A stretch of 56,702 nucleotides of DNA from Enterobacteria phage 9g. Position 1 is the stretch's first letter. Each line of letters starts with the position of its first letter. The position numbers and the translations under genes were made by a program. Positions 7,448-38,834 of the stretch are shown here, piece by piece. Under the pieces are notes generated by a model. That model searched no databases. It was not told where the DNA came from and worked only from the letters and a program-made list of their open reading frames with translations. The stretch lies in sequence record NC_024146.1, one strand, 5' to 3'.

Positions 7448-8212
7448 TCACTCTACGCCTAAATATTTATGAATCTGCAATTGCACGATGTAATTGTGCT
7501 TCATTGCATATTTAACGACAGCTTGAGCGTTTGCTTTATTAGCATCGTCGTCCTGTTCATCCATAGGTTGAAGATAAATTTTACCTTTAAAGTGTACAGG
7601 TGGACGTGCGATAAATGGTGTCGCACGGTGATCCAGTGCCTGCAACGGTAATCCATCTTCCTCGTTGACGTTTCCGCTTTTCATTACATATTTGAAAGCA
7701 TCCGCTCGAGCGGAAACGCTAGGGTGGACCTTTGCTGCCTTAGGACTACATACTACCACACAGTTATAGTTGAGTTCACGCGGGATAGGCATAGTTCCGT
7801 TAGTTTCAACCTGTACACGATAACCTTTCATATCAATGAGGTAATTGATAAAATTAGCAACTTCAGGTTGACGGAAAGGTTCGCCGCCCGTAATGACAAC
7901 TAAGTCAGTCTTGGCTTCACCAGTGACACGGACAATCTCTTGCCAAATGTCACCGTGATTCATCTTCTTACGATTGGACGTATAGTTTGTATCACATCCT
8001 GGGCATTGCAAATTACAACCAGCTAATCGAACAAACACGGCAGGTTGACCACAAAATGGGCCTTCGCCTTGAATGGTATGAAAAATGGAATGCACGTCAA
8101 GAATACCACGTTCACGAACTAACTTCTCAGGTTCCTGAGTATTAATAATTTTCATATGATTTCCAAATTTGGCTTGAGCCCAGTGGTGGGCGATAATGGC
8201 TTGTGCAAACAT
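7448..8212 (-). CDS. queE: 7-carboxy-7-deazaguanine synthase (QueE), radical SAM
   Basis: IFHTIQGEGPFCGQPAVFVRLAGCNLQCPGCDT carries the QueE N-terminal signature and the CxxxCxxC radical-SAM cluster. The longest ORF starts with TTG at 8236; the ATG at 8212 preceded by GAGGT is preferred (8155 is an alternative). Confidence 0.85.
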   Translation of the reverse strand: MFAQAIIAHHWAQAKFGNHMKIINTQEPEKLVRERGILDVHSIFHTIQGEGPFCGQPAVFVRLAGCNLQCPGCDTNYTSNRKKMNHGDIWQEIVRVTGEAKTDLVVITGGEPFRQPEVANFINYLIDMKGYRVQVETNGTMPIPRELNYNCVVVCSPKAAKVHPSVSARADAFKYVMKSGNVNEEDGLPLQALDHRATPFIARPPVHFKGKIYLQPMDEQDDDANKANAQAVVKYAMKHNYIVQLQIHKYLGVE

Positions 8213-8280
8213 TTGAACCTCGGGGTAAGATAACAAAGGGGCAGTAAATGCCCCTTCTGAGTTTCCGAAGTATCTACAGA

Positions 8281-11948: not shown

Positions 11949-12899
11949 TTACTCACCGTAATAATCTGCTGCTTCGTATTGACCACATGCAGCCATCTGA
12001 TCTTCCTTCGTTAATACACCTTCGGTTCCATCTGTGATGTATGCAGTGGCAGAAGCTACTTTGATTGCACATCTCCAGGTTCCATCTTCAAGCGGATAAG
12101 AGTGCTTACAGGTGCGGCAGTTAACTTCAGGCATCTTATTGTTATGACATACCGCTTTGTGGTCACACCATTTGCATTTATAGTAAGACTTACTTTCATT
12201 GATCTTAGGTGGTGGGCATTCTGCCAGTGCAATTACAAATCCACGGTCTTTGTAGCGTTCTGCGGTTTCTTTATCAAACGGTACAAGCTCTGCCCAAATC
12301 TCGTCCGTGTTCTTATTAACTGCAATATAAAGAGCGGCTGGGAGTCCATAGTACAACATGTATTCCTGCATCTGAACATAGTGCTCCCATTTGGATTCCA
12401 TTACACCATTAACGACAAGTTTCTTGAACGAATCATTATTGTGCGTTTTCATCTCCGTTAAGATTGGTGTAGAAGGTTGTGGCATGTCAGGACAACCAAT
12501 GACAATACCATCTATCGCGGAGCCAAAGTGTCCGTTGAGATAGCTGACTCGGTACTGGCTACCATTTTCGTCTTGTTGGATGACTTGCATACCGGCGGTA
12601 AGTAATAAGGCCACGAAGCGACCTTCTTCAAGATGTCCGCGATTGAATAGACGTAAGGTTTTACCGTTAAAGTGTGGTTTTGTTGCCCATCTCCATCCGT
12701 AGAAGATTGCTCTGCTACACTCTTGCCCGATAAGACTAATCCCAAGATGCGAACGGAATCCGCCATCCCCCTCTCTATATGCGTCTTCAATATGCGGTAA
12801 TACTTTTCCGAGCCATACTCTGTAAGCGGATCCTTGATCTCGTTCAATACAGTCATTGAATAACTCCATTGTCTTAGTAGCAGGATAAAAATGTGGCAT
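11949..12899 (-). CDS. Putative PD-(D/E)xK-type nuclease with C-terminal Cys cluster (Cas4/RecB-like exonuclease)
   Basis: 316 aa. C-terminal CKWCDHKAVC ... CRTCKHS ... C (Fe-S/Zn-like cluster); sits between the helicase and the recombinase genes. Confidence 0.45.
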   Translation of the reverse strand: MPHFYPATKTMELFNDCIERDQGSAYRVWLGKVLPHIEDAYREGDGGFRSHLGISLIGQECSRAIFYGWRWATKPHFNGKTLRLFNRGHLEEGRFVALLLTAGMQVIQQDENGSQYRVSYLNGHFGSAIDGIVIGCPDMPQPSTPILTEMKTHNNDSFKKLVVNGVMESKWEHYVQMQEYMLYYGLPAALYIAVNKNTDEIWAELVPFDKETAERYKDRGFVIALAECPPPKINESKSYYKCKWCDHKAVCHNNKMPEVNCRTCKHSYPLEDGTWRCAIKVASATAYITDGTEGVLTKEDQMAACGQYEAADYYGE

Positions 12900-17378: not shown

Positions 17379-17840
17379 CTAAGCGTGGCCGTTTCTCTTA
17401 ATGTATTCGTAAGCGTGTGATTTAAAGATTATCCGAAAATCTTCCAGGGATATTTCACATCTTGGAGGATCTTCTTTGTGATGTTTCGCTTCATCAGCGA
17501 AGAGCATGATAGGGTTCATATACAGGACTACGCGCCAGGACTTTTTATTTTGACGGTACATAAGAACTGGAAACTTGTCTGCTTCCAATGCACTCTTAAC
17601 ACACTGCGCCCACCATGTGTTAATTGATAGCTGCTCCTGTCGTTTAACTTCTACCGCATAGAAACAGGTATTTGTGATATCACAACCACCTACAGCACTC
17701 TGATTCTGATTACGTTGTGCTATGGGCTTTTCTGGATAAGTCATTCCAAGAGCGGCGTAAACTTCTTCGTAGATATCATTAAAGAATTTACAAATTTCAC
17801 GCTCACCTGTCTGACCTTTAGTACGAGGATTAGCTCCCAT
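17379..17840 (-). CDS. Putative PD-(D/E)xK nuclease (Holliday-junction-resolvase-like)
   Basis: Start moved to the ATG at 17840 (GGAGA 8 nt upstream); the longer ORF to 17897 would run through a terminator hairpin. Motif ...CFYAVEVKRQEQ (E-x-K) is compatible with a PD-(D/E)xK fold. Function is inferred. Confidence 0.4.
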   Translation of the reverse strand: MGANPRTKGQTGEREICKFFNDIYEEVYAALGMTYPEKPIAQRNQNQSAVGGCDITNTCFYAVEVKRQEQLSINTWWAQCVKSALEADKFPVLMYRQNKKSWRVVLYMNPIMLFADEAKHHKEDPPRCEISLEDFRIIFKSHAYEYIKRNGHA

Positions 17841-17857
17841 GTTATAAATCTCCATCC

Positions 17858-17884
17858 AAAAATAGGGGGTACACAAGTACCCCC
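17858..17884 (-). terminator. Intrinsic terminator-like hairpin (minus strand)
   Basis: gggggtac(17865-17872) / gtaccccc(17877-17884), 8-bp GC-rich stem, 4-nt loop; minus-strand RNA then reads UAUUUUU. Confidence 0.4.
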
Positions 17885-18025
17885 GAAAGCGAAGCATATA
17901 ATAGATAATAACATGTCAGCGAGAGGCAGCCTTCGAAAAGGGGTAATCTACCAACCACTCTCGCAAATAATGTTAACCTGTTTACGTGTTTGATTGCAAT
18001 ACACGAATTCATCAGAATTCACAGG

Positions 18026-18301
18026 TCATACCATACATTTTTGCCAATGGCCCATAGAAAATGACAGCGAAGTGCAGACAACTTCCAACCCGTTATCATC
18101 ACGTACCACGGGCAAAGCTAGGCCGCTGCGGGCGTTATGTACAGTGCGGTGTACTCTATACACAGAGTTATGCGTAAAGCGCCGCGTGTTCACGTTTGTG
18201 CAGCGTAATAACGCTCCGATATGCACAAGTGGAGCGGGCATAGTAAAGCCAATCATTAAATCCTTCTCTTTCTTATTGGGCTGGCGTACAGTTACATTCA
18301 T
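18026..18301 (-). CDS. Hypothetical protein
   Basis: 91 aa. Its ATG overlaps the stop of the upstream HTH ORF (ATGA), suggesting translational coupling; no recognised motif. Confidence 0.35.
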   Translation of the reverse strand: MNVTVRQPNKKEKDLMIGFTMPAPLVHIGALLRCTNVNTRRFTHNSVYRVHRTVHNARSGLALPVVRDDNGLEVVCTSLSFSMGHWQKCMV

Positions 18302-18477
18302 TGTGTCGTCCCCTCATTTAAAGATTCCAGGCGCTCACCTAACAAAATGAGCGATTTGATTTGATGCGGTTTCTTACCAAGATGTTCAGCAATGTGGTTA
18401 TAAGTAAAACCATTCTCCCGCATACGATAAGCAGTAATAGCGGCATTGCGATTGCGGATATCGGTTTTCTTACTCAT
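18298..18477 (-). CDS. Small helix-turn-helix protein
   Basis: 59 aa, not in the ORF track: MSKKTDIRNRNAAITAYRMRENGFTYNHIAEHLGKKPHQIKSLILLGERLESLNEGTTQ. The segment GFTYNHIAEHLG is HTH-like. Confidence 0.45.
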   Translation of the reverse strand: MSKKTDIRNRNAAITAYRMRENGFTYNHIAEHLGKKPHQIKSLILLGERLESLNEGTTQ

Positions 18478-19421: not shown

Positions 19422-19652
19422 ATGACTCACCAAGATCTTATAAAAAGAAACATCAGAACTGCAATGAACAAATCAGAGGAATTTTCACACAACTGTACTG
19501 ATGGTACTCATAAAATTAGATACGAATATATGGGATCCTCAACTGTGGTTACATTTGAGAAAGATGAGTATCACGTTGGAGATTTTTCAACACCAGATTA
19601 TGACGAGATGTTTGAATACGTTGTATGTGGGTTCTTAGAGTTGCACGAATAA
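19422..19652 (+). CDS. Hypothetical protein (lone plus-strand gene within the minus-strand block)
   Basis: 76 aa. Own promoter-like element, strong SD (GGAGGA), and a terminator directly downstream. Confidence 0.6.
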   Translation: MTHQDLIKRNIRTAMNKSEEFSHNCTDGTHKIRYEYMGSSTVVTFEKDEYHVGDFSTPDYDEMFEYVVCGFLELHE

Positions 19653-19656
19653 TATA

Positions 19657-19686
19657 ATGGGCGCATATAGCGCCCATTTTTTTTAT
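19657..19686. terminator. Bidirectional Rho-independent terminator
   Basis: atgggcgc(19657-19664) / gcgcccat(19670-19677), 8-bp stem, 5-nt loop, then T9 on the plus strand; A/T-rich flank on the other side. Lies between convergent genes 19422..19652 (+) and 19683..22058 (-). Confidence 0.6.
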
Positions 19687-22058
19687 AGCTTAATAATCTT
19701 CTCCATGCGTTCGATATCCACTAAATAACACTTCATCCTCGGTGGTACAAAATCAGGACCGAATAAACTTGAGAAGTCCATAGGCCTCATTTCAGCAAGA
19801 ACTTCCATAGACATCAGACCATAAATTGTATTGTCTATGACCTGCAATATGTTGTCGTTTCTTGTCTGCTTGAACGCTTTAAATTGCCTACAATAAGTAC
19901 ATAAATCACTCCGTGTAACTATAAACGAGTCCTTAAACATTGGGAATTTATCATACACATAAGCCTTCACTTCTCCGTCCAAGAATCTTTTTATAGTCGC
20001 GAGCATTATCTTCTCACGGCTTGTACTATCTGTAGACCCAATTTGCCCACTGTTACGCTTCTCTAAGAAACGCTCGTTACCCTGATCGATAAATGACTCA
20101 GCCCAACGATAATGTTCCATAGTAACAACGGGTCGTTCACTGTTATCCGCAACAGCAAGAAGAGAAGCTATACGCAATACCTTCAACGCCTTCCTTGTGT
20201 ACATCTGACGAATTACTTCGTCTTGCACCTGCTCACCATCGTTGCCGCTGTTCAGGAACTTCGCAACAACATTATCAAGATTATCAAACGCTTCGTGTAC
20301 CTCTGCTTCCATTTCAACATAACACGGAGCAGTCCCTGACATAATACGCACAGCTTGTTTATAGATAGCTCCAATAGTGCGCAGAATTGCTTCTGGATAT
20401 TCCAGGAGCATACTCTTATTCATCAACGGGCGGTTAGCTGTACATTCCCATGCGATAATACGGGACATGAAGCCACTAGACATCATACGGTCATCCACGT
20501 TCCCGTAAAATTCATCTGGTGTTGTTTCACCTGCAAAACTATACGCCTTAACCTTACCACCAGCAGTCGTATTATCTTTACTAGAGTGCTTTGAACCACC
20601 AGAGAAAGCATAGAAATGCCCCTTGTCATAAAGGGAAAGCATTTCATCCATAATGTCTTTAGCTTTACCAACTTCCATCTTACCGTTACGGAAAAACGCA
20701 CCGACTTCAGTCTTATAGTTGATGGATGAGCCACAAGACATAACGGACGTATCCATTATGACGTCCTTGCGCAATGCAGCATCAGACGCATAGGTACTTG
20801 TATCTAGGACACGTTCAATACCAAATATCTGCTGACCGTCTTGACCGCCATAATTGGATACTTGAGAAAGAATAGTTTCAATGTTAGAGCGAAACGCTTC
20901 TTTACCAATACCAGAACGTGCAATTAATACAAAGTAGTTATTCAAACCACTTCGTGTGACTGTGTTCCACGCCTTACCGCACATACCACTAAATAAAGCA
21001 AGAGCAGACAGAATACTAATGTCTTTAATAGGCAACAAGCTCGCTTTATACATATTACGCGCAACCTCGCCCATAAAGCCCGGAGGCCAAGCCAAACCGT
21101 CTGCCTGCTCTTCAGTGTAATTACCATCTGTGGTCAACACTTCTTCAGGTGGGCGTTCTGGTGTAGTTGCTTGACGTAGTTTTTCCGTGCGCTCTATAGC
21201 TGCATTAACGTTATTCTGAACTATCTGCATAAGTCCCATAGATTTAACATGGGCATCATAACGATAGTTGCGAATCATTCTATCCAGGTGATACGGACGT
21301 TTAATTTTTTCACCAGGCATACGACGGGAATCATCATAACGACTACTCATTGGTGAATACATGAATAGACGTCTTACCTGGAAATTGTACTTACTCTTAA
21401 AGCAAAGAAAGTCAATTAATGCAAATTCTGCTTCAGACTGAGAAGGGAAACAACGTTCGCCGATAGAAGTATCAACTTCTTCAGCTCTCCAACGACCTTC
21501 CCATAGCTGCTTAAACAATGTTCCGTTTTCTTGTTCGCACAGCTGGATATAGACATCCTGGTCTTCCATTGCATATGGGTCGTTACTAAAATCTTCTTCA
21601 GTAAGTTCCAGCATTTGGAAGCCATCAGACTCATTAATCTCACTCATCTCAGACATAAGTTGATGAATGAGATTAGCGATATACCCTTCGCTTTCACTGC
21701 CTGGAGCACCAGACACAATACGCGGAGTAATATCCCAGTGATCGCCTGTACAGATAATAAAACGATACTGCGAATACACTTCCACACCATCACGGCGCTT
21801 ACCAGCCTGAGGGATGGAATAAATCCATGTATGCAACCCATCACCACTTCTGGAAATTTCCGTATAGCTATGGAACGATTCAACAATCTTCTTATATCGC
21901 TCACCAGCAACTTTCTTTTCCATTTCAGACATGGTATCTTTAATGTCCATGTCTATACAACAGAACGGGTCACTTGGAAGTAGATAGAAACCTAAACGCA
22001 AGTTATGGCCAATCTCGTTATAATAACGAACGCAGCGTTCAGCATCTTCAAAAGACAT
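19683..22058 (-). CDS. Putative DNA primase (PrimPol/AEP-type N-terminal domain) with C-terminal NTPase-like region
   Basis: 791 aa. AEP motifs CIDMDIKD (DxD) and SRSGDGLHTWIY (sGxGxH); later LIARSGIGKE (P-loop-like). Confidence 0.6.
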   Translation of the reverse strand: MSFEDAERCVRYYNEIGHNLRLGFYLLPSDPFCCIDMDIKDTMSEMEKKVAGERYKKIVESFHSYTEISRSGDGLHTWIYSIPQAGKRRDGVEVYSQYRFIICTGDHWDITPRIVSGAPGSESEGYIANLIHQLMSEMSEINESDGFQMLELTEEDFSNDPYAMEDQDVYIQLCEQENGTLFKQLWEGRWRAEEVDTSIGERCFPSQSEAEFALIDFLCFKSKYNFQVRRLFMYSPMSSRYDDSRRMPGEKIKRPYHLDRMIRNYRYDAHVKSMGLMQIVQNNVNAAIERTEKLRQATTPERPPEEVLTTDGNYTEEQADGLAWPPGFMGEVARNMYKASLLPIKDISILSALALFSGMCGKAWNTVTRSGLNNYFVLIARSGIGKEAFRSNIETILSQVSNYGGQDGQQIFGIERVLDTSTYASDAALRKDVIMDTSVMSCGSSINYKTEVGAFFRNGKMEVGKAKDIMDEMLSLYDKGHFYAFSGGSKHSSKDNTTAGGKVKAYSFAGETTPDEFYGNVDDRMMSSGFMSRIIAWECTANRPLMNKSMLLEYPEAILRTIGAIYKQAVRIMSGTAPCYVEMEAEVHEAFDNLDNVVAKFLNSGNDGEQVQDEVIRQMYTRKALKVLRIASLLAVADNSERPVVTMEHYRWAESFIDQGNERFLEKRNSGQIGSTDSTSREKIMLATIKRFLDGEVKAYVYDKFPMFKDSFIVTRSDLCTYCRQFKAFKQTRNDNILQVIDNTIYGLMSMEVLAEMRPMDFSSLFGPDFVPPRMKCYLVDIERMEKIIKL

Positions 22059-31663: not shown

Positions 31664-31754
31664 CTAAACGTTCAATCTTAATCGCACATAATTGATTGTG
31701 TGAGTGTGATAATTCCACTATGCTCTATTCGGTTTAACTGAATGGAGCTTTTTT

Positions 31755-36610: not shown

Positions 36611-36641
36611 AGCGCGGTAGAACGGTCTATCGCGCTTTTTA
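36611..36641 (+). terminator. Terminator-like hairpin after the portal gene
   Basis: agcgcg(36611-36616) / cgcgct(36631-36636), then TTTTT. Confidence 0.35.
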
Positions 36642-38789: not shown

Positions 38790-38808
38790 TGCTTTAGCCA
38801 TGTAATTA

Positions 38809-38834
38809 AAGGGGCCTATATGGTCCCTTTTTTG
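38809..38834 (+). terminator. Rho-independent terminator after the capsid gene
   Basis: aaggggcc(38809-38816) / ggtccctt(38822-38829) with one G-U pair, loop TATA, then TTTTTTG. Confidence 0.6.

Follow-up and report, generated by a model that had tools for sequence, protein, structure and literature searches.

A probable leaky Rho-independent terminator in the 5′ leader of the PD-(D/E)XK nuclease gene of Enterobacteria phage 9g

Intrinsic terminators of Escherichia coli and its phages, of the type recognized by ARNold and TransTermHP, have a GC-rich RNA hairpin of strongly negative folding energy (stem of ~5-14 bp, loop of 3-8 nt) and a U-rich tract on the 3′ side. They stand after a co-directional gene, are strand-asymmetric, and keep their structure as the sequence drifts. 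Within E. coli operons there are also partial terminators and attenuators, such as T1 of rpsU-dnaG-rpoD and the rplL-rpoB attenuator, and the ompA 5′ untranslated region (5′UTR) is an example of a stem-loop that stabilizes an mRNA from its 5′ terminus. Among phages, ONT-cappable-seq transcriptomes of six Pseudomonas phages mapped 42 termination sites to 5′UTRs, of which 81% yield a short RNA or a read-through transcript (PMC10914365). Here we analyze a hairpin on the minus strand of Enterobacteria phage 9g (NC_024146.1; the window is the whole stretch of 56,702 nucleotides), located at 17865-17884 just upstream of 9g_00020, a gene for a PD-(D/E)XK nuclease. In our judgment the element is likely a Rho-independent terminator in the 5′ leader of this gene, with translation beginning at the ATG at 17840.

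Like canonical intrinsic terminators, the 9g element has a GC-rich 8-bp stem, a tetraloop and a U-rich tract, and it likewise follows a co-directional gene, is strand-asymmetric and is maintained as a structure in diverging sequences. Unlike them, it abuts the next ribosome-binding site, with 24 nt to the ATG and no promoter between, and its U-tract is short and interrupted. In lying inside a co-directional array, lacking a downstream promoter and depending on read-through, it resembles the intra-operon partial terminators and the 5′UTR terminators of the Pseudomonas phages (PMC10914365). With respect to the intra-operon attenuators it differs in that read-through is something we infer, and in that no regulatory partner or alternative structure was found for the 9g element. 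The stabilizers of the ompA type also place a stable hairpin a short way upstream of a ribosome-binding site, but they need no U-tract and must form the very 5′ end of the transcript, whereas no convincing promoter places a transcript start there in 9g. By this comparison we class it as an ordinary leaky terminator of the Rho-independent, intra-operon kind.

Read on the minus strand, 17884-17865 is GGGGGTAC-TTGT-GTACCCCC, which in RNA gives GGGGGUAC-UUGU-GUACCCCC, a perfect 8-bp stem with six G-C pairs closed by a 4-nt loop and a folding energy, for the hairpin by itself, of -15.4 kcal/mol. Directly 3′ of it comes TATTTTTGG, with the T-rich tract at 17864-17858, which is transcribed as UAUUUUU and adjoins the stem. 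The combination is not random. The 51-nt local context of the hairpin has a fold z-score of -2.97, with an equally good fold in 1 of 200 shuffles, and a strict search (perfect 8-bp Watson-Crick stem, at least six G-C pairs, loop of 3-8 nt, at least five T in 8 nt) returns three sites in the 56.7-kb window, namely 17884-17865 and the two strands of 19657-19677, against none in 40 dinucleotide-preserving shuffles. The T-rich tail is confined to the coding strand; the opposite side reads GAAAGCGAAG and has no T-tract. The hairpin lies 141 nt past the stop codon of the gene at 18026-18301 and 24 nt ahead of the ATG at 17840, outside the true coding sequence, and falls within the initial 57 nt (17897-17841) of the mechanically chosen longest open reading frame (ORF), 17379..17897. 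An earlier note, made from the letters alone, had picked out a GC-rich hairpin with a minus-strand U-tract inside the start of this ORF, and its stem, T-tract and coordinates are all confirmed. The features looked for in an intrinsic terminator are thus present together: a GC-rich stem-loop, a 3′ U-tract, a position after a co-directional gene, and changes that preserve pairing.

The last of these emerges from comparison with related phages, where the position of the hairpin is conserved. Over 1.3 kb around it, 9g, itself a Nonagvirus, is 94-97.5% identical to Nonagvirus phages, for example JenP2, JenK1, HdK1, SE1 and BRET. The stem is kept in all Nonagvirus genomes, at -10.7 to -15.4 kcal/mol, the changes being loss of the outer pair or replacement of G-C by G-U; G-C to G-U changes are found in HdK1, FritzHoffmann and the Klebsiella phage Kpn2-P2. 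A terminator is already annotated at the orthologous site in HdK1 (MK373794; -13.2), HdSG1 (MK373795; -16.8) and SP8 (MT682705), the first two based on ARNold, which was used to screen intergenic regions in the HdK1/HdSG1 study (PMC6563267). These are the same element, 97% identical and placed between the gp51-like and the 462-nt nuclease genes, and there is no substantive difference from 9g: the three have T6 where 9g has T5, the closing pair is G-U in HdK1, and SP8 lacks the outer pair. In Klebsiella phages the hairpin is GGGGCGC-UUCG-GUGCCC(C/U) followed by T7; it lies 20-21 nt ahead of the ATG and differs from that of 9g in two pairs, each altered on both sides. The hairpin of Vibrio phage 83AMN, ACCGCC-UAAG-GGCGGU, is unrelated in sequence, again with T7 and 18 nt before the ATG. 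The upstream terminator is further from the nuclease gene in yong3, Seurat, CAjan and SD04 (75-85 nt) and in PSTCR4 (~180 nt). Among 80 viral-contig loci, the 13 whose protein identity is 57% or more all have it, the Vid5 locus excepted.

One relative stands apart in detail. FritzHoffmann (locus L020, ~735-760) carries a run of 10 G in the 5′ arm of the terminator where the others have 5, and its stem, with two G-U pairs, folds at -10.7 kcal/mol; the run is either a homopolymer expansion or an assembly artefact.

The gene downstream of the hairpin encodes a 153-aa protein (17379..17840, minus strand) that scores 51.4 bits (E = 1.6e-13) with Pfam PF24608 (PDDEXK_15), whose curated cut-off is 27, and falls in phrog_244. 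Its catalytic residues D54, E64 and K66 (153-aa numbering; D-x9-E-x-K) are invariant in eight lineages. RefSeq names it 'RusA-like Holliday junction resolvase', a label carried by phrog_244. 9g_00020 has no match to the RusA profile, a Pfam scan at E up to 0.1 gave PDDEXK_15 alone, and a sequence search for a relative in the PDB found none. As judged from these profiles, the name reflects a presumed function and the PHROG label, not homology to RusA.

Several lines of comparison place the start of this gene at the ATG at 17840. The N-terminus encoded there, M-G-A-N-P-R-T-K-G-Q, aligns with the M-A-(I/V)-N-x-R-x-K-G-Q that begins every homologue examined (Klebsiella Kpn2-P2 and K9PH25C2, Vibrio 83AMN, Providencia PSTCR4, Pantoea Vid5, Hafnia yong3, and the Escherichia phages Seurat and CAjan). 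The 19 residues upstream of this Met match nothing in the protein alignment of homologues. The profiles begin close to the same residue, Pfam PDDEXK_15 from position 2 and PHROG 244 from position 4, and DNA homology with distant relatives ends at 17840-17843. Within 17379-17840, 48 of the 56 variable sites are at codon position 3. The start is served by a Shine-Dalgarno (SD) sequence, GGAG, at 17850..17853 on the minus strand, with a spacing of 8-9 nt (spacer ATTTATAAC), and a GGAG is kept at the equivalent place in Nonagvirus, the Klebsiella phages and Seuratvirus. Pairing with the 3′ end of 16S rRNA amounts to -6.4 kcal/mol for the ATG at 17840, -0.9 for that at 17855 and +0.7 for that at 17897, just as the earlier note had said in assigning a proper SD to the first and none to the upstream ATGs.

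The stretch 17841..17897 is accordingly best described as a non-coding 5′ leader that the longest ORF wrongly absorbs, with the in-frame ATGs at 17897 and 17855 unused. The T-tract differs in length among genomes (T5 in 9g, T6 in most relatives, T7 in BRET), so that the reading frame through the hairpin differs between them. TAG or TGA stands in frame just before the ATG at -15, the equivalent of 17855, in BRET, JenP1, ChristophMerian, SE1 and PD328 and in five viral-contig loci, two of which (L024 and L026) apparently duplicate SE1 and JenP1; such a stop is found in 5 of 12 relatives in one set and 5 of 9 in another, or about half. Among the relatives examined, the 57-nt extension including its ATG is intact in 9g and HdK1 only. 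None of the 12 independent GenBank/RefSeq annotations of close relatives departs from the short start (a 462-nt gene; 465 nt in FritzHoffmann), and the 9g record itself uses it too, with an exact 153-aa match to 9g_00020 (AHN84536.1 / YP_009032343.1), whereas the 172-aa and 158-aa forms of the 9g sequence were not found in a collection of 15 billion proteins. Homologue N-termini, SD pairing, frame breaks and annotations thus agree with the earlier proposal that the gene most likely begins at 17840, and on the sequence evidence this is its start. Both the short start of 9g and the terminator features of HdK1, HdSG1 and SP8 are already in public records. Choosing the longest ORF would append 19 false residues to the 9g nuclease, and the value of the correction is that of an annotation sanity check.

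The same error can be seen in another record. In Aeromonas phage SD04 (MH230177; L008 717-1274) the homologous nuclease is annotated 30 residues too long, its start codon lying inside the loop of the upstream terminator hairpin, a longest-ORF artefact.

Termination at the hairpin, its efficiency and its read-through are inferred, and the mechanism can be outlined as follows. Coming from the small early genes upstream (19323 to 18026, minus strand), host RNA polymerase would cross a conserved 128-nt gap and transcribe the GC-rich inverted repeat, and the 8-bp RNA hairpin would form in the exit channel. The transcript would then be held by the weak rU:dA hybrid of UAUUUUU alone, and a fraction of complexes would release their RNA at ~17858-17862. 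Transcripts of the upstream gene at 18026-18301 are those expected to end at the hairpin, which would probably also act as a protective 3′ hairpin for these RNAs. In this way the element would set the ratio of upstream to downstream messages, with ribosomes loading at the GGAG (17853-17850) and initiating at 17840.

That only a fraction would terminate follows from the arrangement of the leader. The U-tract and the SD take up the 24 nt between stem and ATG, leaving no room for a promoter, so transcription of the nuclease gene, as of the co-directional genes behind it (those for dUTPase, RNase H and ligase among others), must pass through the hairpin, and this required read-through points to a partial, attenuating terminator rather than a full stop. 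A consensus scan of the minus strand from 18026 to 17840 detects no sigma-70-like promoter. Where the terminator is distant from the nuclease gene, a good sigma-70-like promoter does lie between the two: TTGCGA-17-TAAAAT in Seurat, TTGCAA-18-TATAAT in yong3, and another in CAjan. The earlier note had the hairpin end the upstream transcription unit. Terminator anatomy, the annotations at orthologous sites and the conserved hairpins favor this, but the lack of room for a promoter means that it is not the whole story, and the element is probably a partial terminator. In the 9g genome the early and DNA-metabolism genes occupy the minus strand (~36-28,100) and the late genes the plus strand. The original 9g paper treats each half of the genome as one transcription region read from distal divergent promoters, with the 28-kb early region modelled as one such region with a distal promoter, and makes no mention of terminators (PMC4276943). 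A single distal early promoter (PMC4276943) would itself require passage through any internal terminators. The sole refinement that we add is that the element must be read through, in a layout that recurs as a design of the 9g genome.

A number of observations count against this interpretation or narrow it. The 9g U-tract is short (5 U), with an A interrupting its second position, and there is no upstream A-tract, so that termination efficiency could be low. The missing downstream promoter means that the hairpin is not a full stop, which weakens the simple reading of it as the end of a unit. The searchable literature holds no experimental 3′-end or 5′-end data for any Queuovirinae phage. The Nonagvirus sequences are too similar for covariation statistics, and the comparison across genera comes down to three or four hairpin types. 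Finally, the terminator is missing upstream of ~65 more distant homologues, and its conservation is limited to one phage group. We reject on this ground the idea that it is a universal companion of the nuclease family; the predicted terminator belongs to how genomes in this phage group are organized and does not go with the nuclease family as such.

The alternatives that survive best concern the gap between the upstream gene and the hairpin (17898..18025, minus strand), a non-coding, highly conserved and predicted structured stretch that would serve as a leader or else form the 3′UTR of the upstream unit. One, which we regard as unlikely, is that the gap and hairpin together constitute a dedicated leader or small non-coding RNA, a 5′UTR terminator with short-RNA and read-through modes that would gate the nuclease/dUTPase/RNase H/ligase block and have a larger version in Seuratvirus. 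Closely allied, and to our minds just as doubtful, is the proposal that the hairpin is not the end of the upstream mRNA at all, being instead a 5′ stabilizing stem-loop or the leader/short-RNA terminator of a transcript begun within the gap. Candidate promoters for such a transcript are CTGACA-15-TATGCT (start ~17886) and TTGCAA-18-TAACAT at 17999-17970 (start ~17963); the mRNA would then be headed by the hairpin, or a leader or small RNA of ~100 nt would end there, with the nuclease expressed from the read-through fraction.

The striking conservation of the gap speaks for an RNA of this kind. Across 11 Nonagvirus genomes, 3.9% of its columns are variable, compared with 12.1% in the nuclease, 15.6% in the gp51-like and 9.4% in the gp52-like gene, and its five variable sites are all structure-neutral, lying in predicted loops or a bulge or changing G-C to G-U or U-A to U-G. 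The 221-nt region around the gap has a fold z-score of -3.55. Abundant short RNAs from phage 5′UTR terminators are documented (PMC10914365), promoter-like sites occur at the 5′ edge of the Seurat and yong3 gaps, and, read by eye, the sequences immediately 5′ of the hairpin in 9g and in Klebsiella and Vibrio phages contain weak promoter-like hexamers. In 9g, however, the consensus scan described above detects no such promoter; the best by-eye candidates match at 8-9 of 12 positions with non-optimal spacers of 15 or 18 nt, and MAFFT places the Seurat, yong3 and Vibrio promoters on different, equally weak 9g sequence. Given this ambiguous alignment and the weak candidates, we have rejected the idea that the Seurat/yong3 upstream promoter has a conserved sigma-70 homologue in the gap of 9g. 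The U-tract would be superfluous in a 5′ stabilizer, and five other junctions of the 9g genome with the same layout, described below, follow stop codons directly, with no gap. A leaky terminator serving the upstream unit remains our preferred reading.

Other candidate functions and genes in the gap fared poorly. A replication origin is rejected, as GC skew tracks gene orientation, with its minimum at ~24-25 kb and nothing at 18 kb. A 56-aa ORF at 17842-18012 is rejected because its ATG is present in 9g only (ACG in all relatives) and it is frameshifted by the T-tract indels. A 24-aa ORF at 17948-18022 on the minus strand (GTG at 18022 to TAG at 17948), annotated in the BASEL records Bas19 and Bas20, lies in the frame of the gp51-like gene directly past its TGA-C stop, lacks an SD and shows two synonymous and two non-synonymous differences; it is probably not a gene. 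In SP8 (L003 2319-2795) an HNH homing endonuclease gene is inserted at the 5′ edge of the gap, at the equivalent of ~18014, replacing the left half of a GAATTC-UGAU-GAATTC hairpin and leaving the remaining gap and the terminator intact. The gaps of Seuratvirus (L012, Seurat, 1144-1560; L011, yong3, 1187-1553; also L013 and L008) are more elaborate, consisting of a promoter (TTGCCA-17-TAAGAT), ~330 nt of non-coding sequence, the terminator and a second promoter. Their non-coding part contains 8-9-nt repeats of (G/T)TAAC type and a ~60-nt element in which two pairs appear compensatory between Seurat and yong3 (GACGG/CCGTC vs GAGGG/CCCTC and CAGCC/GGCTG vs CAACC/GGTTG). Such a gap may hold a gene for a non-coding RNA or else a region resembling an origin; only a short stretch related to it is retained in 9g.

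Far less probable than a transcript begun in the gap is a nuclease of 158 aa that begins MEIYN-M, translated from the in-frame ATG at 17855, with the hairpin still as an upstream terminator. This ATG is invariant across all Nonagvirus genomes examined, and a single JGI/IMG gene call within the protein cluster has 158 aa. Its conservation is explained by the overlap of its ATG-GAG with the GGAG that serves 17840. It has no SD of its own (the pairing energy is the -0.9 kcal/mol given above), and in the Klebsiella phages there is a TAA in frame at -15 and no upstream start. The homologues and both profiles start at the equivalent of the 17840 Met, not at 17855, and every curated record makes the same choice.

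Regulation of the terminator as an attenuator or riboswitch is more improbable still. Here a conserved motif further upstream, UUACCCCUU (17946-17938), would act as an antiterminator by pairing with the 5′ arm of the hairpin, under control of a protein, a ligand or the ribosome. An alternative pairing of 7 bp is indeed possible (-11.7 kcal/mol), the motif ACCCCUUUUC, which spans the stop codons of upstream genes that are not homologous, is common to 9g and the Klebsiella phages, and Seurat has an upstream 8-mer copy of the terminator 3′ arm for which 0.026 of shuffles pair equally well. In the other lineages the complementarity is no better than chance, with shuffle fractions of 0.11 in 9g, 0.83 in Klebsiella, 0.64 in Vibrio and 0.50 in yong3, and the motif is single-copy in the 9g genome. 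As it does not exceed shuffles in four of five lineages, antiterminator pairing of the ACCCC motif with the 5′ arm is rejected. No Rfam family, preQ1 classes included, is found in the whole window at gathering threshold, in 17700-18400 at E up to 10, or in the gaps of the relatives; the sole confident Rfam match overall is a tRNA-Ser in Vid5, and no tRNA or tmRNA gene was found in the window.

The upstream motif has a wider form, GTAG(A/T)T(T/A)A-CCCCTTTTC, common to 9g (17935-17952) and the Klebsiella phages (L005 ~1455-1475) and single-copy in 9g. The upstream ORFs of 9g and the Klebsiella phages are non-homologous (BLASTP E = 1.2), and a single-copy motif shared across the stops of such ORFs suggests a DNA or RNA element rather than coding conservation. 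It is rejected as a repeated phage promoter or operator, having one copy in the genome, and motifs resembling GTAAAC-N3-GTTAAC are not enriched. At 8 bp a stem is too short for an RNase III site, and the hairpin is rejected as one.

A genuine longest ORF, with a 172-aa protein from the ATG at 17897 and the hairpin as RNA structure within the coding sequence, has in its favor the frame open from 17897 in 9g and HdK1 and is effectively refuted by comparative data, its chances appearing negligible given the different frame through the hairpin in T6 genomes, the in-frame stops in about half of the relatives examined, an ATG devoid of an SD, homology to the 57-nt extension found nowhere, and the missing 172-aa sequence in the protein collection.

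The last gene of the co-directional unit upstream of the hairpin, at 18026..18301 on the minus strand, encodes 91 aa and belongs to phrog_20894 (E = 5e-64). It looks like a real gene because it is annotated in all relatives and its variable sites are biased to codon position 3 (9/5/29 by codon position). It was apparently passed over when 9g was first annotated, since 9g_00020 and 9g_00021 (18298-18477) have consecutive accessions, and its exact 91-aa sequence was not found in the protein collection. The ORF is locally GC-rich (0.55, compared with ~0.43 for the genome).

The layout seen ahead of the nuclease gene, in which stop codon, hairpin, T-tract, SD and ATG follow one another, is repeated, with a strong terminator-like hairpin, at five further junctions between co-directional genes of the genome, where the stem stands 6-32 nt before the start and leaves no room for a promoter. 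On the minus strand, the hairpin at 12945-12920 precedes the start codon at 12899 by 20 nt, and that at 8257-8235 precedes the start at 8212 by 22 nt. On the plus strand there are hairpins at 31722-31748 (start 31755, 6 nt, with the SD within the 3′ arm), 36611-36636 (start 36669, 32 nt) and 38808-38830 (start 38847, 16 nt). Such repeated placement of a terminator against the next ribosome-binding site suggests that expression along the long early and late arrays of 9g-like phages is tuned by leaky terminators and not by many internal promoters, a strategy known in other phages and one that refines the single-promoter picture of the original 9g paper. The longest-ORF artefact also recurs, at three of these junctions: the mechanical starts at 8236, 36642 and 38820 lie in or at the hairpin or T-tract, and the SD-backed starts are 8212, 36669 and 38847.

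The early block of the minus strand also harbors a single gene in the opposite orientation (19422-19652, plus strand, 76 aa). Behind this gene comes a hairpin at 19656-19678 that resembles a bidirectional terminator and also lies 5 nt after the primase/helicase-like gene at 19683-22058.

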